A stretch of 64,000 nucleotides of DNA from a virus. Taxonomy: Duplodnaviria; Heunggongvirae; Uroviricota; Caudoviricetes. The stretch spans positions 265,787 through 329,786 of IMG/VR virus record IMGVR_UViG_3300015214_000024. One strand, given 5' to 3'. The notes beneath the pieces are model-generated. The model was given only the letters and a program-made list of their open reading frames with translations, was not told the DNA's origin and searched no databases. Both the position numbers and the translations under genes were made by a program. Shown here in pieces: positions 22,926 through 49,126 of the stretch; within the stretch, counting starts at the first letter, position 1; each line of letters starts with the position of its first letter.

Positions 22926-23795
22926 TTATAATTGTGTAGGTGTTAGGGAAATCTTAACAGGTTGGGCTAATTTTTCCCATCCTTGTGCTATTAAATTGTT
23001 AGAATTGACTGGTTTATATTTCTCAGGATCTAATGACCAAGTTATATGATAAGTTCCACCATCTGGTCTTTCTGTTGATCCATCAATAGCCACAACAGCG
23101 GCTTCAAGTCCATCACCAGAATCAGCCCATCCAACAATTTCTGCAGAATTGATATCTGGCGGCGGCATCTTATCCTTATTCTTCATACTATAAGTTACGT
23201 GATGTGCGTAAATTTTAGGATATTTTGGTTTAAACATTTGCAATAATTCCTTTCGTTCCATTGCATCTGGAACGTAGGCCTTATATGCTTCGTGGACAGT
23301 GTTGCGAGGTATTGCACCATTCTTTAAAAACATCTCTAAGCGGCGGCCGGAAAGAGTATAATGCGCGCCAGCGACATCTAAAACGACAGTTTTATGATCA
23401 TCACCGAGAATTCGCAATGCTTTAACTGCTTGGCGTAAAGTTTCGGCAGCAACCGATGTTTCATCATAATTACCATTCTGGCGTGAATCGTGATAAATTA
23501 CGCGAACCCATCCTCGGTCATTCATAAATTGAATAGGCCCTGGTTCACCATCAACAAGATCAGTTATTTCATCATTATCATCTGTTATGTGATCCATCTG
23601 ATCAATTTTATCAGCATATTCTTCAGTTCTCGGATCATTCAATAAATCTTTAAAAGAAACACCAAACAAATCTGGATGAAGAAATAATAATGAACTGTGT
23701 GAAGAATGAATGTCAACAGGAATAATTTCCTTAGTATTCACATTTACCCAAGCCGGTCCACGAACATCAGATGCTAAGAATTCATTTAAGCGCAT
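22926..23795 (-). CDS. two-domain protein with C-terminal 2H phosphoesterase-like domain
   Basis: AHHVTY and YHITWS HxT motifs; MRLNEF N-terminus. Confidence 0.55.
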   Translation of the reverse strand: MRLNEFLASDVRGPAWVNVNTKEIIPVDIHSSHSSLLFLHPDLFGVSFKDLLNDPRTEEYADKIDQMDHITDDNDEITDLVDGEPGPIQFMNDRGWVRVIYHDSRQNGNYDETSVAAETLRQAVKALRILGDDHKTVVLDVAGAHYTLSGRRLEMFLKNGAIPRNTVHEAYKAYVPDAMERKELLQMFKPKYPKIYAHHVTYSMKNKDKMPPPDINSAEIVGWADSGDGLEAAVVAIDGSTERPDGGTYHITWSLDPEKYKPVNSNNLIAQGWEKLAQPVKISLTPTQL

Positions 23796-23803
23796 TTTAC
23801 TTC

Positions 23804-24343
23804 CTATGTATTAATTGAGCCAGCAGTCATCAATAAACGAACGTATTTTTCAACTGGCGGCCAGGCCTTCTCTAATTCAGAATCTGAATCAATTTTAGTC
23901 CATTCTTGCTCTTCTCGTTCATTCCAAAACAGACCATAACAGTTATATTTCTTAAATAAACTTCTCCAGATTCTTTTTGAATCTTCTGTTTGCTCAAAAT
24001 CACTGACGATTGCACCATATTTTTTAATGAACATTTCATACATCGCTTTGGCCAATCCCTTGCCACGATGGGAAGGGGCCACCCAAACATATGCAGCCAC
24101 CCAATAATTTTTGTCAATTAGTTTACGATTTAGAAATTTGAAGAGGCCAACGACTTTGTCGTCTTCAACAATAAACCATCTTTTTGTATCGTTTAGACTA
24201 TCATCTTCATAAATGGTATAACCACTACTTTGAGCAATAATGGATGAAGAGTCTTTTACTTTATCGAAATTGAATTGGTTACGATTTACGACAATATCAT
24301 CATCCGGAAGAGCATCCAAAGTCCTCAATTCAAACATTCTCAT
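23804..24343 (-). CDS. GNAT acetyltransferase
   Basis: VWVAPSHRGKGLAKAMY...SD..QT.DS.RIW. Confidence 0.75.
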   Translation of the reverse strand: MRMFELRTLDALPDDDIVVNRNQFNFDKVKDSSSIIAQSSGYTIYEDDSLNDTKRWFIVEDDKVVGLFKFLNRKLIDKNYWVAAYVWVAPSHRGKGLAKAMYEMFIKKYGAIVSDFEQTEDSKRIWRSLFKKYNCYGLFWNEREEQEWTKIDSDSELEKAWPPVEKYVRLLMTAGSINT

Positions 24344-24364
24344 ACTTGATTATTCCGAAAAAAG

Positions 24365-24480
24365 TGGTGCGGCCGGTAGGGATCGAACCTACAAACCGGG
24401 GAACATTACACGAAATGTATCAACCCGGGGCTGTTCAAACAAGTTTGACAGTCGTGTCTGCCTTATTTCACCACGGCCGC
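24365..24480 (-). ncRNA. tRNA-Leu-like RNA with 13-nt anticodon loop and hyper-extended variable arm
   Basis: GCGGCCG/CGGCCGC-A-CCA acceptor, Leu-type D arm, GTAGG-TTCGATC-CCTAC T arm; own TTGACT-N17-TATATT promoter. Confidence 0.75.
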
Positions 24481-24534
24481 ATAGTTAATTAATATATGAT
24501 ATTTATTTTTCTAAGTCAAGTATGAAAAGTAGTT

Positions 24535-24786
24535 TTAGGTTTCAGTGATGATGAAGGCGCTATGCATATGGTCTTCCATTTTCATTATGAATGAAGCAGG
24601 CACGGAACGATTTTCAGCATAGTCATAGACCCACTGGATTTCAAAATCACAATTATATTTCTTAGCTAAATCATTAAGTTCATCTACCGTCAGTAAACGA
24701 TTGGTATATTTACAAATACCGTACCGGGTTTTATCCATAGTTACGATATCAGTATAATCTTTTATTTCAAAAGAAAGTTCTTTCAC
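24535..24786 (-). CDS. small hypothetical protein (paralog pair)
   Basis: E.HM..AF.I.ET shared with the next ORF. Confidence 0.55.
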   Translation of the reverse strand: MKELSFEIKDYTDIVTMDKTRYGICKYTNRLLTVDELNDLAKKYNCDFEIQWVYDYAENRSVPASFIMKMEDHMHSAFIITET

Positions 24787-33171: not shown

Positions 33172-33263
33172 TGGCGGACAGTGAGGGATTTGAACCCTCG
33201 GAACCCCTTACGAGGTTCGGCACATTAGCAGTGTGCTGGTTTTAGCCACTCACCCAACTGTCC
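33172..33263 (-). tRNA. tRNA-Ser(GCT), canonical 7/5
   Basis: GGACAGT/ACTGTCC-G-CCA; GCACA-CTGCTAA-TGTGC; long V arm. Confidence 0.95.
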
Positions 33264-33271
33264 ATAAAATT

Positions 33272-33361
33272 TGGAGGAAGACGGGATAATCGAAATCCAC
33301 ACCATATTTCAGGTGCCCACTCCTTAGCAGGGAGGTCCAGAACCTTTCTGGTTCATCTTCC
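33272..33361 (-). tRNA. tRNA-Ser(GCT), 8/4-type, U73
   Basis: 8-bp GGAAGATG/CGTCTTCC, T-CCA, D stem CCAGA/TCTGG, CTCC-CTGCTAA-GGAG, 4-bp T stem GGAT/ATCC. Confidence 0.85.
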
Positions 33362-33368
33362 ATATATA

Positions 33369-33484
33369 CAACAAAGACAGGATTCGAACCTACGTGGTCC
33401 CAGGGCGTCAAATTAATTTGTCCGGATCCTAAGACCATCCCGCTTCTGGGCGGGCTACCTTAAACCTATCTCAGCCACTTCATT
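33369..33484 (-). ncRNA. tRNA-Ser-like RNA with 6-nt anticodon loop and hyper-extended variable arm
   Basis: AATGAAG/CTTTGTT-G, Ser-type D loop, CCCGC-CCAGAA-GCGGG, 10-bp TGGTCTTAGG/CCTGGGACCA V stem, GGTTCGAATCC. Confidence 0.6.
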
Positions 33485-33488
33485 GTAT

Positions 33489-33579
33489 TGGAGGAGCCGT
33501 GGGTACTCGAAACCCATACCGTTTTTTAGGTATCAACCGCTTTCCAGGCGGTGGTTGCGCCCTGGCAACTAACGACTCC
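33489..33579 (-). tRNA. tRNA-Ser(GGA), 8/4-type, U73
   Basis: GGAGTCGT/ACGGCTCC-T-CCA, D stem GTTGC/GCAAC, ACCGC-CTGGAAA-GCGGT, T stem GGGT/ACCC. Confidence 0.85.
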
Positions 33580-33585
33580 GCAAAT

Positions 33586-34257
33586 TTAAACTACTGTTCT
33601 TCCTTTATACCATCCTATTGGAATTACCATATCCTTTTTAATTTTCTGGTTTTTAGATCCGTCAGTAATCCACATAGTTCCGAATTGTGAATTTTTCCTT
33701 CCAGTTTGGAAGCCATCATTTTTTTCTTTCCATTTTTTAATAGCACTATCAGATTTAGATAATTTACTAAATTCTTTAGCTTTTTCTGGATTCAAGCTAT
33801 GGAATTCTTTCATAGCTTCAGAACCTTTAACCCATCCTTTACATTCCACAAACCGCAATCTTGCTTTTTCAAGTATCCATTCATAACCTGGTTTACCAAA
33901 TGGTGAAATAAATTTATTCCATTCTGCCTTAGTTTCAAATCCTCGATCTTTGTAATAAGAGCCTTCTAAGTTGTATATTGTAAAGCCACCAGTTCCGCCA
34001 AGCATTAAATTATAAGTATTGTTATCTTTTACAAAATCTTCGTTAACTATTTCACGTTCTTTATTATTCATATCATTTTCATTATCAAAAATATATAATG
34101 TTTCTTTATCAAAGTTTTTTATTCCATATTTTTCTATAGCAGATTTTATTAATTTTCCTGAACCCATATAGCCATCATCTAAATCATCAGTAATATGCTT
34201 GCCAATATAGATCTTACCATTTAGTTTGTTTGTTATTTTGTAAATTATATTAAACAT
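33586..34257 (-). mobile_element. Seg-like GIY-YIG homing endonuclease inside the tRNA array
   Basis: IIYKITNKLNGKIYIGKH...DDGYMGSG...YNL..GG; true start ATG 34257 (the upstream in-frame part is tRNA). Confidence 0.85.
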
Positions 34258-34277
34258 AAAAATCCATTCAATTTTTG

Positions 34278-34364
34278 AGGACAGTGTGGGATTCGAACCC
34301 ACGGGACCCTCGCAGGTCCTCCGGTTTTCAAGACCAGTGCAATCGGCCACTCTGCCAACTGTCC
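34278..34364 (-). tRNA. tRNA-Ser(TGA), canonical 7/5, U73
   Basis: GGACAGT/ACTGTCC-T; CTGGT-CTTGAAA-ACCGG; long V arm. Confidence 0.92.
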
Positions 34365-34372
34365 ATATATTT

Positions 34373-34461
34373 TGGCGGAGGGTAGGCGGAATCGAACCCC
34401 TGACCTTACGGTTCCACTAGTTTTCAAAACTAGGTGTGCATCCCCGGCACAATTACTCTCC
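34373..34461 (-). tRNA. tRNA-Ser(TGA), 8/4-like
   Basis: GGAGAGTA/TACCCTCC-G-CCA (one mismatch), D stem TGTGC/GCACA, CTAGT-TTTGAAA-ACTAG, bulged T stem. Confidence 0.8.
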
Positions 34462-38636: not shown

Positions 38637-39773
38637 ATGAAAAACAAATTCAATCCTGATATGGACCTGATCCGAATTGCATTCGAGAATGCCAACGTTC
38701 CTGTGCGACTAGTTGGCGGCTGTGTCCGGGATATGCTGTTGGGCATTAATCCTAAGGATTGGGATATGACCACGCCGGCATTGCCTGATGATATTATCAG
38801 CATCTTGAGAGCAGCTAATATCGAATGCTTTGATATGAGCAACGGTCACGGCACTATTACTGCGGTGATTAACAGTGAGCCTTATGAAATCACTACATTA
38901 CGGCAGGATTTGGAAACTGATGGCCGTCACGCGGTTGTGGGTTTTACTGATGATTGGAAAGTTGACGCTGAACGTCGAGATTTCACGTTTAACGCAATGA
39001 GTATGGATTTTGACGGAGTCATTTATGACTACTTTGGTGGTATTGCTGATCTAAAAGCTGGCCTGGTACGTTTTGTTGGTGATGCTGAAAAGCGCATCCA
39101 AGAAGACTATTTGCGTATTCTGCGTTATTTTAGGTTTTTGGGCCGAATGCCCAAGCCAGAAGCAGACGTAGAAACACTGGCTATTATTTCAGCAAATCGC
39201 CAAGGACTGGCTAATATTTCTGGCGAACGTATTTGGTCTGAAATGAAGAAAATCTTCTCTGGTGAACACGTTGATTTCATTATGGATTTGATGGATCATT
39301 CAAAAATCACCGGTGCTATTGATTTGATGATTAATAAGCCGGCGGTTCCAGCATCTAGGGATCCAGTGACAATTTTGGCAGCGTATATTGATTTTGCGTT
39401 CGTTGAAATTGTGTGCGATCGTTGGAAGCTGTCCAGTAAAGAAGAAAGCCAGTTGGTGTATTTGACCAATTTTCGAAACATAATTGACGATGTCAAGGTA
39501 CTGAAAGAAGCTATTTTTGAAGGTACTGATCGTTATTATGTTTTGGAGTTGATGAAAATTCAACATCGAAAAGACGATTACGAGATTTTGAAAAATTGGA
39601 TCATTCCAACTTTTCCAGTATCTGGTAAGGATTTGATCGAAATTGGTGTAAAGCCAGGCCCAAATATGGGCTTCATCATTAAAGTATTGCGTAAATCATT
39701 TGTAGAATCAAACTATCAAATGACTAAAGAACAATTTCTTTCAATGGTTGATATAGATAAAAGCCCGGAGTAA
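38637..39773 (+). CDS. cca: CCA-adding tRNA nucleotidyltransferase
   Basis: VGGCVRD, DWD, EITTLR, RRDFTFNAM, EDYLRILRYFRF, SGERIW.E. Confidence 0.92.
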   Translation: MKNKFNPDMDLIRIAFENANVPVRLVGGCVRDMLLGINPKDWDMTTPALPDDIISILRAANIECFDMSNGHGTITAVINSEPYEITTLRQDLETDGRHAVVGFTDDWKVDAERRDFTFNAMSMDFDGVIYDYFGGIADLKAGLVRFVGDAEKRIQEDYLRILRYFRFLGRMPKPEADVETLAIISANRQGLANISGERIWSEMKKIFSGEHVDFIMDLMDHSKITGAIDLMINKPAVPASRDPVTILAAYIDFAFVEIVCDRWKLSSKEESQLVYLTNFRNIIDDVKVLKEAIFEGTDRYYVLELMKIQHRKDDYEILKNWIIPTFPVSGKDLIEIGVKPGPNMGFIIKVLRKSFVESNYQMTKEQFLSMVDIDKSPE

Positions 39774-48710: not shown

Positions 48711-48739
48711 AGAAAAAGCAGCCTAAGCCGCCTTTTCTG

Positions 48740-48965
48740 TTAAATTCTGTTGCTAGGTTTTAACTACCCCGGCAGGCTGCTTACGCAGCAAGAGCCATAA
48801 CTGTATTATCATTGTCAGTTATTTTATTTAGTAACTTGTCTCGAGATTCTTACTTCTTGCACGTCGATCCTGGTTCAGGCCCTAAAAAGGTTTCCAGTAT
48901 TGCCACCGGTTGGTGGACCTGCCGGGTTCCGCCCCCGGGTCCGCTACAGCGTTCATTCACTGTCA
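48740..48965 (-). ncRNA. ssrA: two-piece (permuted) tmRNA, tag (A)DNDNTVMALAA
   Basis: Acceptor piece ...CCGGGGGCGGAACCCGGCAGGTCCACCA (ends 48911), intervening segment, coding piece GGGCCTGAACCAGGATCGAC from 48882 (G3:U), tag ORF 48816-48781, terminator 48712-48737. Confidence 0.93.
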
Positions 48966-49126
48966 TCAACTTGTTACAACATATTTATACAACATATCTA
49001 AATATGCTGTCAAGAACTATCTTCACATTAAGCTTACCTCGCCGGCAAGATTAATCTCAGCAAACAAAGGATTGTCACCCAATGCTAATGTATAAAAATA
49101 GTTCTTGACAGAATATTTAATATGAT

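Follow-up and report, generated by a model that had tools for sequence, protein, structure and literature searches.

A conserved tRNA-Leu-like RNA without an anticodon, encoded ahead of an acetyltransferase gene in an uncultured huge phage

The tRNA genes carried by phages are usually explained either by codon supply or as spares against defences that cut tRNAs. The tRNA-like domain of tmRNA and YrlA (RF02553) mimic the acceptor stem, T arm and D arm of a tRNA, do without an anticodon and serve outside normal decoding; tmRNA is charged by an aminoacyl-tRNA synthetase that ignores the anticodon, and YrlA genes sit in RNA-repair operons. Non-proteinogenic tRNA-Gly species of Staphylococcus feed FemXAB cell-wall synthesis. 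Among phages, T4 encodes RNAC and RNAD, small stable RNAs of its tRNA region whose roles are not known (PMC3014915, PMC9697503), and the Lak megaphages have tRNA genes with “enigmatic introns” (Devoto et al. 2019, PMC6784885). In the literature we came across no account of a tRNA-Leu-like phage RNA devoid of an anticodon, and it is an RNA of this kind that we describe here.

Its gene lies on the minus strand of a 64,000-nt stretch of DNA (hereafter the window, always meant at its full length) from a 455-kb uncultured phage, with G1 at position 24480 and the final A of the terminal ACCA at 24365, i.e. 116 nt in all (24365..24480). The Rfam tRNA model RF00005 scores it at 32.5 bits (cut-off 29, E 3.5e-5) in an alignment that takes in the acceptor, D and T parts only and skips the middle, and default ARAGORN called no tRNA at this gene, also when its thresholds were lowered. 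The initial annotation had proposed a perfect 7-bp acceptor stem, A73-CCA, a Leu-type D arm and an intact T arm, all of which are borne out. The acceptor stem GCGGCCG/CGGCCGC (RNA positions 1-7 at 24474..24480, pairing with 24369-24375) consists of seven Watson-Crick pairs out of seven and is followed by A73 at 24368 and CCA at 24365-24367; U8 is also present. The D arm (RNA 10-27, 24454..24471, minus strand) has a 3-bp stem, GUG/CAC, and the loop AAAUAAGGCAGA, in which A14, A15, G18, G19 and the class II Leu-type GGCAGAC can be recognized, and in which at least one extra nucleotide (more in variants L048 and L014) precedes G18G19. The T arm (RNA 89-105, 24376..24392, minus strand) reads GUAGG, UUCGAUC, CCUAC. 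A 7-bp acceptor with its discriminator, a D arm with G18G19 and a T arm with a UUCRANY loop belong to any canonical tRNA, and the RNA possesses all three.

What it does not possess is an anticodon. Hairpin 1 (RNA 30-50, 24431..24451, minus strand), which aligns with the anticodon arm of tRNA-Leu(CAA), is built of CUGU/ACAG, an invariant bulged A, CAAA/UUUG and a CUUG cap, such that the anticodon loop is replaced by a helix extension of 4-5 bp with a small variable cap. A self-pairing 13-nt anticodon loop had been proposed for this region; the stretch in question, CAAACUUGUUUGA, is indeed there and does pair, but it is better read as the CAAA/UUUG helix under the CUUG cap together with the bulged A. 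Across the 11 distinct variants known to us (see below) the cap measures 4-7 nt and differs in sequence (CUUG, UUUGAU, AAUUGA, CUUUA, CAUUAU, CUUUGUA and others), while 98.9% of the helix cells pair and two of the pairs show compensatory changes (U-A to C-G in L043, A-U to U-A in L014). A 7-nt loop with a conserved triplet was sought in all 11 and found in none; a canonical anticodon arm, i.e. a 5-bp stem and a 7-nt loop with U33, a conserved anticodon and purine 37, is likewise missing, as is a leucine anticodon (NAG or YAA), there being no anticodon loop in any variant to hold one. The suspicion that this RNA has no usable anticodon was thus correct, and it therefore cannot read codons.

The second peculiarity is an over-long variable arm. 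Hairpin 2 (RNA 53-85, 24396..24428, minus strand) rises from the base CCGGG/CCCGG through bulges of UU and U into an upper stem, forming a helix of about 12 bp, in which six of the 12 modelled pairs are altered on both sides among the variants. Of an arm of about 37 nt closed by a UUUCG pentaloop, as originally drawn, the CCGGG...CCCGG base stands, but the arm is 33 nt long in the window (29-37 nt across variants) and its apex is the hexaloop UCGUGU (24408-24413), which is identical in 11 of 11 variants; the end loop has 6 or at most 8 nt. No conserved site for the complementary ACACGA was found in the local operon. The sole conserved ACACGA is the 3' strand of the RNA's own D stem, and since both elements are invariant, covariation is uninformative about their pairing. 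A search of the genome for further families of hairpins capped by UCGUGU returned none. We also considered hairpin 2 as a second anticodon arm with the anticodon CGU and rejected it: a loop of 7 nt could form only with a purine bulged out and would have G37, and the stem has about 12 bp.

The same architecture recurs at 13 loci (11 distinct sequences) from other, independent metagenomes. Compensatory changes affect 11 of 35 pairs in five of the six helices. In the acceptor stem, for example, all seven pairs form in every variant, with both sides altered at 2:71 (C-G to A-U in L048) and at 6:67 (C-G, U.G, U-A); in the T arm every cell pairs, 50:64 is swapped from U-A to A-U in seven variants, and the loop is UUCGAKC throughout except for one UUCAAUC. 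Over all proposed helices 96.8% of cells pair, as opposed to 35-43% when the partners are slid, and none of 500 shuffles reaches these values. The helix cells contain 14 G.U and one A.C, an excess which indicates that the fold belongs to the minus-strand RNA. Identity of the RNA among relatives amounts to 86%, whereas synonymous third positions in the GNAT acetyltransferase gene next to it reach 61%. The RNA is thus intact and under selection rather than decaying, as had been surmised, and the conserved architecture and covariation in relatives contradict a recent, insertion-damaged tRNA-Leu. The 11 variants represent one phage lineage with a common gene order, for which reason the linkage of the RNA to its downstream genes is not independent evidence of joint function.

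Several lines of comparison connect the RNA with tRNA-Leu. A covariance model built on it (R1), which gives the window's copy 132.9 bits and its homologs 100.7-134.1 bits, finds as its next-best matches in the phage the five tRNA-Leu genes, at 49-37 bits, in keeping with the original description of the RNA as tRNA-Leu-like. In the alignment with tRNA-Leu(CAA) (genome 199282-199368), hairpin 2 takes the place of the variable arm, and the D-arm segment GGCAGACACGACUG, invariant among the variants, lines up with the phage's tRNA-Leu(CAA) genes. Both the RNA and such class II tRNA-Leu species have a 7-bp acceptor stem with A73, a 3-bp D stem with a GGYAGAC loop, A15:U48, a canonical T arm and a long variable arm in the same place. 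However, tRNA-Leu has a 7-nt anticodon loop where the RNA has a closed helix of about 9 bp that cannot decode, and a variable arm of about 13 nt as compared to 29-37 nt ending in the invariant UCGUGU. Judged by its sequence, the RNA descends from a class II tRNA-Leu, is conserved and functional, and does not decode. The LeuRS identity set, comprising A73, A15:U48, G18G19, A20a and U54/U55/C56/A58, is invariant in 11 of 11 variants. LeuRS is one of a few synthetases that do not read the anticodon of their tRNA; where G18G19 sits is important to the E. coli enzyme. In E. coli this identity set suffices, and leucylation requires neither the anticodon arm nor the variable arm (PMC9976931, citing Larkin 2002, Asahara 1993, 1998). 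It is plausible from these elements that the RNA is charged by LeuRS. The phage encodes no LeuRS (PF13603 is absent), so any leucylation would need the host enzyme.

Compared to the described systems, the RNA resembles the Lak tRNAs in being a huge-phage gene rendered over-long by short conserved inserts that are too small for group I or group II introns, and in being missed by bacterial tRNA finders. In Lak, however, a normal tRNA whose anticodon can be assigned results once the insert is taken out, and alleles lacking the insert occur, whereas here there are two separate expansions and no consistent excision. T4 RNAC and RNAD, to which we liken the RNA by description, are likewise phage-encoded small RNAs linked to tRNA genes, but they lie inside a tRNA cluster, while the RNA described here heads what appears to be a protein-coding operon. 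With the tRNA-like domain of tmRNA and with YrlA it shares the mimicry of acceptor, T arm and D arm without an anticodon, and it probably also acts outside normal decoding. It is itself neither of the two. The mRNA-like part, the pseudoknots and G3:U70 of a tmRNA are missing (3:70 is G-C), the tmRNA mode of ARAGORN and Rfam find no tmRNA here, and the phage's tmRNA lies elsewhere (48736-49017). As to YrlA, the ends of the RNA lie at the acceptor stem instead of a Ro-binding stem, and RF02553 has no match at E up to 10 in 24250-24600; a separate YrlA-like match is found at L042:276-383.

Upstream of the RNA we predict a sigma70-type promoter (24491..24519, minus strand), with the -35 element TTGACT at 24519-24514, a 17-nt spacer containing the conserved AATAAATATC and the -10 element TATATT at 24496-24491, from which transcription would likely start 2-5 nt ahead of G1. 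A promoter of its own had been claimed for the RNA, and this holds: 10 of the 12 consensus positions are matched, and TTGAC[AT]-N17-TATA[TAC]T recurs in eight of nine homologous loci examined, L006 having TCGACA. About 29 sites as close to consensus as this one exist in the genome, this one included. The 3' end of the RNA is separated by 21 nt from the start of the GNAT gene (17-25 nt in all relatives), a gap in which no terminator was found and which has no room for another promoter, and the GNAT gene is probably on the same transcript. Their adjacency is kept where the upstream neighbours differ (L043) and where a gene has been inserted further downstream (L048). The arrangement of promoter, RNA, GNAT gene and the following gene for a 2H-like protein fits a single operon in which the RNA would be the first cistron.

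The initial annotation had named the products of these two downstream genes as GNAT and 2H proteins. For the former (179 aa, 23804..24343, minus strand) this is well founded, given PF00583 at 34.2 bits (cut-off 20.7), the acetyl-CoA motif RGKGLA and a predicted model (pLDDT 82.8) that matches known structures at Z 7-9.4 and rmsd 3-4 A over 110-128 residues, as expected of a generic GNAT fold. Its subfamily is not separated by the fold search, in which protein N-acetyltransferases, AAC(2') and the AtaT/TacT toxins come out level; the toxins that acetylate aminoacyl-tRNA (AtaT Z 8.1, TacT3 Z 7.4) thus do not stand apart from protein N-acetyltransferases. The acetyl-CoA motif and the generic acetyltransferase fold do not favour an aminoacyl-transferase. 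The second assignment fares less well and is based on two HxT motifs and a weak Atlas lead. The protein (289 aa, 22926..23795, minus strand) has 165 N-terminal residues of no assigned kind and a C-terminal part of about 120 aa that contains the motifs and may, weakly, be called 2H/CPDase-like. HHVT and HITW are invariant in the 289-aa proteins; the C-terminal domain also occurs alone in the jumbo phages SCTP-2, Phosso, RsoM2USA and Atu_ph07, and in such stand-alone relatives the first motif is DHVT (or HHxT). Look-alike clusters in the Atlas contain PF08302 (tRNA_lig_CPD) in 19-36% of their members; Pfam PF08302 itself reaches only E 0.096 in two of 16 relatives, and the window's protein has no Pfam match at E up to 10. 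Its fold model (pLDDT 45) is unusable. Searches of PDB sequences with the GNAT, the 289-aa protein and a profile of the C-terminal domain gave nothing significant, and PADLOC had no match among the four neighbouring proteins. Three genes downstream lies a gene for GluRS. Elsewhere the phage has genes for a CCA-adding enzyme, at about 38706-39071 of the window, for three to five Rnl-type ligases and for a Ro/TROVE protein, it has many tRNA genes, including two normal ones for tRNA-Glu(UUC), and no Leu/Phe-transferase was found in it.

Codon supply and protection from tRNA-cutting defences both need an anticodon; selection on this RNA after its loss, and the gain of a new invariant loop, point to a different use. 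The initial annotation had offered a decoy, an aminoacyl donor or a ligand of the downstream proteins, and these are guesses. The reading we tentatively prefer, which we judge nearly as likely to be right as wrong, is that of a tRNA mimic, processed, given a CCA tail and possibly leucylated, which works away from the ribosome and whose UCGUGU arm is a handle for a partner. RNase P and 3' tRNA-processing enzymes would excise the RNA from the transcript, the same cut also making the 5' end of the GNAT mRNA. The CCA end would then be added or repaired by the phage's own CCA-adding enzyme, as suggested by the presence of this enzyme and by the fact that the window's own lineage alone encodes CCA, the 10 other distinct variants having ACUA or ACAA. 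The mature RNA would fold into the normal L-shape and work in trans, its acceptor end and elbow engaging a protein that reads tRNA-Leu without the anticodon. Host LeuRS would be the prime candidate for such a protein, in which case the RNA may be leucylated. The UCGUGU-tipped arm could finally be held by a specific partner, for which the two co-transcribed proteins are the nearest candidates. It counts against this proposal that the Leu identity elements may simply be inherited, the tRNA body having been kept for folding, processing and stability; extra nucleotides precede G18G19 in the D loop, a distant GNAT relative (L016) lacks the RNA in the 143 nt available upstream, and the GNAT has the look of a common acetyl-CoA enzyme. 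Several other insert-bearing tRNA bodies in the genome are, moreover, not Leu-like, which favours a general use of the tRNA body as a scaffold over a leucine-specific one.

A bolder version, quite unlikely in our opinion, makes the RNA a dedicated off-ribosome aminoacyl carrier, onto which host LeuRS would load leucine, which the loss of the anticodon would bar from translation, and which the UCGUGU arm would hand over to phage enzymes. The co-transcribed GNAT, for instance, might acetylate the leucine on the RNA to give a look-alike of peptidyl-tRNA. A chargeable tRNA that is withheld from translation and reserved for a different enzyme has its parallel in the tRNA-Gly species of Staphylococcus; these are, however, ordinary cloverleaves with a normal anticodon arm, and here no aminoacyl-transferase was found, as the phage has no Leu/Phe-transferase and the neighbouring GNAT carries an acetyl-CoA motif. 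If true, this would be the first example of a phage encoding a chargeable tRNA without an anticodon for work outside the ribosome, and perhaps one case of a wider use of the tRNA body as a scaffold in this phage. Charging would not be needed if the RNA were a decoy or sponge, whose likeness to class II tRNAs in acceptor end, elbow and long variable arm would absorb a host toxin or defence enzyme directed at tRNA parts other than the anticodon (for example a nucleotidyltransferase, a pyrophosphokinase or a nuclease with the 3' end or the variable arm as its target), the 2H-like enzyme healing the damaged ends. The intact acceptor end and elbow, the emphasis on the variable arm, the large RNA-repair kit of the phage, the CPDase-like domain downstream and the strong sigma70-like promoter, predicted to suit early and abundant expression, all agree with this. 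Yet neither a defence system nor a toxin was identified as target (the PADLOC result on the four neighbouring proteins being null), the free variation of the hairpin 1 cap excludes anticodon nucleases, and the invariant UCGUGU is not a feature of real tRNAs that would need copying; we regard a decoy as unlikely. The short and conserved distance to the GNAT start codon with no separate promoter raises the question of whether the tRNA body acts mainly in cis, as a processing and stability module heading the GNAT/2H mRNA, the released RNA having no job of its own. Bacteria do co-transcribe tRNA genes ahead of mRNAs, as in the thrU-tyrU-glyT-thrT-tufB operon of E. coli. For this purpose, however, any foldable tRNA body would suffice and an ordinary tRNA would serve equally, leaving the helix in place of the anticodon loop, the covarying long arm and the invariant hexaloop unexplained, so that we find this account distinctly unlikely.

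The two remaining explanations keep the RNA within translation or deny it a function. When introns are allowed (-i), ARAGORN calls a tRNA-Glu(UUC) in seven of nine variants, from which 31-34 nt reaching from the top of hairpin 1 into the 5' half of hairpin 2 would be removed in the manner of the Lak “enigmatic introns”; the GluRS gene downstream would suit this, and the literature records phage tRNA genes that contain short, unexplained inserts (PMC6784885), of which several occur in this very genome. The predicted anticodon stem is poor in the window, though, with two Watson-Crick pairs, two G.U and a mismatch; the same program finds nothing in L006 and calls Asn in L014; and UUC is not conserved, L043 having AAUCGUGU and L014 ACUUCGUGU. 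In three variants the intron reading thus breaks down. Furthermore, the supposed exon-intron boundary falls inside a helix with four covarying pairs, the body is Leu-like and not Glu-like, both expansions occur in 11 of 11 variants of the one lineage with no insert-free allele seen, and the phage is already provided with its two normal tRNA-Glu(UUC) genes. An intron-bearing tRNA-Glu is for these reasons very improbable. A decaying or insertion-damaged tRNA-Leu pseudogene, finally, might be missed by default tRNA finders just as this RNA is, and its loss would be tolerable among the many tRNA genes of the genome, but it is hardly credible in view of 86% identity where synonymous sites are near saturation at 61%, compensatory changes in five helices, a conserved promoter and the expanded architecture in 11 of 11 variants.

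With respect to its wider meaning, the RNA is a clean natural case in which to ask whether tRNA mimics, charged or chargeable, serve phages away from the ribosome. Taking into account the insert-bearing tRNA bodies, the Y-RNA-like gene with the Ro protein and the many RNA ligases, it may belong to a larger tRNA-scaffold toolkit of huge phages that standard annotation misses.

The related loci, including the JGI contigs L013 and L014, were reached via protein look-up only. Megablast with the surrounding 3 kb and blastn with the RNA against 50,697 phage records gave no match, exact and gapped pattern scans of a viral contig collection gave none, and neither did a gapped scan of a metagenome contig collection, outside which the known relatives, L013 and L014 among them, evidently lie. 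A search for related loci with the GNAT or the 289-aa protein was negative in the viral contigs and found, in the metagenome contigs, the distant GNAT relative L016 (27% identity), upstream of which no tRNA-like RNA occurs within the 143 nt available. R1 run on the whole genomes of Salicola phage SCTP-2 and Sinorhizobium phage Phosso returned ordinary tRNAs and no homolog. The scan of SCTP-2 also brought to light one different insert-bearing tRNA body, 122 nt in length.

The tRNA-Leu-like RNA is encoded on the minus strand from G1 at window position 24480 to A76 at 24365 (116 nt), and the initial annotation described it rightly, three refinements apart. As read from the sequence, all on the minus strand, the acceptor stem pairs GCGGCCG (then UG) with CGGCCGC; the D arm has stem strands GUG and CAC around the loop AAAUAAGGCAGA and is followed by GA; hairpin 1, the former anticodon arm, reads CUGU-CAAA-CUUG-UUUG-A-ACAG, then CC; hairpin 2, the long variable arm, reads CCGGG-UU-GA-U-ACAUU-UCGUGU-AAUGU-UC-CCCGG, then UUU; the T arm reads GUAGG-UUCGAUC-CCUAC, and the 3' end is A73, then CCA. 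The 13-nt anticodon loop originally described is present but better regarded as the anticodon stem lengthened by 4 bp, with a single bulged A and CUUG as its cap; the long variable arm is also there, but its apex had been drawn wrongly and is the hexaloop UCGUGU; and the A73-CCA end is encoded here, but encoded CCA is limited to the window's own lineage, and the other 10 of the 11 variants would depend on a CCA-adding enzyme. The Rfam tRNA model scores 32.5 bits (cut-off 29), its alignment being confined to the acceptor, D and T parts with the middle passed over, and default ARAGORN makes no call. Unaided, RNAalifold predicted the helices of the acceptor, D arm, hairpin 1, upper hairpin 2 and T arm. 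The hexaloop (24408-24413, minus strand) is exactly complementary to ACACGA (24452-24457, minus strand), which runs from the final base of the D loop through the 3' strand of its stem to the second base beyond; both are invariant, and their pairing lies outside the reach of covariation. This complementarity could have arisen by chance, at odds of about 3 in 100 in an RNA of 116 nt, or could point to an alternative fold or to contact within a dimer.

DNA searches of phage, viral and metagenome collections returned no match. Protein look-ups yielded relatives of the GNAT encoded downstream (58-98% identity) and full-length relatives of the 289-aa protein that follows it (71-99%), whose contigs supplied the loci analyzed here (L002-L015 and L043-L048). 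Wherever a locus extends far enough upstream, the RNA lies directly before GNAT, giving 13 loci with 11 distinct sequences. When all variants were realigned on R1, a covariance model built on the RNA with its full structure, 96.8% of helix cells paired, as opposed to 35-43% with the 3' partners slid by 1-3 columns; 11 of the 35 pairs were changed on both sides, and none of 500 shuffles reached the observed pairing or covariation values. Compensatory changes fall in the acceptor (2:71 and 6:67), in hairpin 1 (two pairs), in hairpin 2 (six pairs) and in the T stem (50:64), so that the homologs with covariation that the initial annotation had proposed seeking do exist. Since the helix cells contain 14 G.U and only one A.C, the helices belong to the RNA of this strand rather than to DNA or to a transcript of the other strand. 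Mean identity of the RNA across relatives is 86%, with variable sites concentrated at D-loop 16-17, the hairpin 1 cap, the hairpin 2 stem and position 75, whereas third codon positions of the adjacent GNAT are 54% identical overall and 61% in codons that keep the same amino acid. A dead gene would be expected to have diverged far more, and together with the compensatory changes this upholds the view that the RNA is intact and not decaying.

The absence of a usable anticodon is likewise confirmed, as both the sequence and the length of the hairpin 1 cap change from one variant to another (CUUG, UUUGAU, AAUUGA, UUUGAA, CUUUA, CAUUAU, AUAUA, CUUUGUA) and the invariant hairpin 2 loop comprises six nucleotides on a stem of ~12 bp. 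With introns allowed, ARAGORN does report a tRNA-Glu(UUC) with a 31-34 nt intron in seven of nine variants; however, the proposed Glu anticodon stem is weak, the model gives no call in L006 and another identity in L014, UUC is missing from L043, the presumed splice junction cuts a helix bearing four covarying pairs, the body resembles tRNA-Leu, and two ordinary tRNA-Glu genes are already available to the phage. On these grounds we rejected this reading; the tests run in this analysis leave it very improbable, and a pseudogene even more so. That the gene is at once real, conserved, structured and non-decoding we consider highly probable. When R1 was run on the phage's own genome, the next-best matches were five tRNA-Leu genes (49 to 37 bits), and an alignment with the phage tRNA-Leu(CAA) at 199282 reveals a common ...GACUG(A/U)C..CAAA... 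core, with hairpin 1 falling on the anticodon arm and hairpin 2 on the variable arm. These matches indicate that the RNA is a tRNA-Leu descendant with two changes, namely a capped helix in place of the five nucleotides that separated C32 from A38, and lengthening of the variable arm from ~13 nt to 29-37 nt.

The sigma70-like promoter claimed for this RNA (TTGACT-N17-TATATT, 24519-24491, minus strand) is indeed present, and each of the nine loci checked retains both it and the element AATAAATATC in its spacer. The genome holds about 29 such near-consensus sites in all, and the predicted start of this one leaves a 2-5 nt leader. Only 17-25 nt, usually U-rich with GGA, separate the RNA from the GNAT start codon, leaving no room for a second promoter, no terminator was detected there, and the gap from GNAT to the next gene is a few bases. 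We thus infer a single transcript with the tRNA-like RNA as first cistron, and its excision would make the 5' end of the mRNA. The surrounding genes, all encoded on the minus strand and many of them related to translation, are in order IleRS, class I LysRS, alpha/beta hydrolase, UvdE, methionine aminopeptidase, two small ORFs, the RNA, GNAT, the 289-aa protein, GreA and GluRS. Gene content varies around the conserved RNA-GNAT pair: an additional 149-aa ORF separates GNAT from the 289-aa gene in one relative (L048:2551-3000), 175-aa and 193-aa ORFs replace the latter in another (L010:2678-3801), and upstream genes, a DUF3841 protein among them, differ in a third (L043:96-2238).

As for the downstream genes, originally named GNAT and 2H, the former assignment (23804-24343, minus strand) stands on a Pfam match above cut-off and an RGKGLA acetyl-CoA motif. 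Its predicted structure (pLDDT 82.8) has fold matches of Z 7-9.4 in which protein N-acetyltransferases, AAC(2'), AtaT/TacT toxins and Rim enzymes are tied. The latter (22926-23795, minus strand) survives only as "2H-like", a fair but not established label for its C-terminal ~120 aa, which carry two invariant HxT motifs; the N-terminal part has no family label. This domain stands alone, in unrelated contexts, in the cultured jumbo phages SCTP-2, Phosso, RsoM2USA and Atu_ph07, and its ESM Atlas look-alikes are viral clusters with PF08302, the cyclic phosphodiesterase domain of fungal tRNA ligase, in 19-36% of members. Pfam matched it weakly (E 0.096 at best, in two relatives), and no usable fold model of the 289-aa protein was obtained. 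The whole phage encodes three to five Rnl-type RNA ligases, a Ro/TROVE protein and a CCA-adding enzyme; neither RtcB nor Leu/Phe-transferase was found across it.

In E. coli, leucine identity requires A73, A15:U48, G18G19, A20a and D-loop/T-loop tertiary pairs, and neither anticodon nor variable arm is needed, a truncated tRNA-Leu without both arms still being charged (PMC9976931). All these elements are present and invariant in all 11 variants, which makes leucylation plausible, but one or more additional D-loop nucleotides precede G18G19, and the elements may be kept by descent alone; no LeuRS gene was found in the phage. The CCA-adding enzyme is represented by a head domain (PF01743, 110.9 bits) in a 381-aa frame at about 38706-39071 (plus strand), and CCA is likewise not encoded in about 21 of the 69 ordinary tRNA genes. 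We favor, with a little less than even confidence, a trans-acting tRNA mimic that would be matured as tRNAs are and would engage a tRNA-Leu reader that ignores the anticodon, such as LeuRS, the UCGUGU arm serving as a handle for a partner. Next comes the unlikely case of an uncharged decoy for host toxins directed at tRNA ends, followed by the somewhat less likely one of a processing module that acts mainly in cis. In the literature searched, no account of an RNA like this one was found; its closest known kinds are class II tRNA-Leu, the insert-bearing tRNAs of Lak phages (PMC6784885), the tRNA-like domains of tmRNA and YrlA, and T4 RNAs C and D, whose role is unknown (PMC3014915, PMC9697503).

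Scanning the phage genome for a T arm plus acceptor pairing uncovered at least seven further tRNA bodies outside the window, each with its acceptor and T arms intact and additional RNA in the middle (L036:160-280, L037:140-260, L038:171-273, L039:268-368, L040:146-301, L041:117-203 and L042:142-241). Default ARAGORN misses all seven and, with introns allowed, calls four; in L040, a folded 71-nt insert interrupts a tRNA-Leu(UAA) between U34 and A35. This phage may thus put tRNA bodies to wider use, the tRNA-Leu-like RNA being one example, which weakens the leucine-specific reading and strengthens that of the tRNA body as a scaffold for processing and stability that carries a new functional arm. 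Adjoining the body in L042 is a YrlA-like (RF02553) match (L042:276-383; E 5.8e-6, 37.6 bits against a gathering score of 69), and a 526-aa TROVE/Ro-domain ORF lies at a distance (genome 174838-175542); the phage may carry its own Ro/Y-RNA pair. The 455,147-bp record, complete per CheckV, of which the window covers bases 265787-329786, has 69 tRNA genes (ARAGORN), including two with CUA anticodons outside the window (genome 15281-15358 and 165512-165586, labelled "Pyl" by ARAGORN), which would be amber suppressors, the phage genes otherwise being in the standard code. Within the window lie a permuted, alpha-type tmRNA gene (48736-49017, minus strand, 91.1 bits) and four clustered tRNA-Ser genes (33172-34461, minus strand). 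Salicola phage SCTP-2 contains a 122-nt tRNA body, not homologous to the tRNA-Leu-like RNA and unannotated in its record (MF360958.1 298729-298850; L032:1501-1622), in which a GCGCG/CGCGC anticodon stem surrounds a ~50-nt insert and the CCA end is followed by a terminator hairpin.
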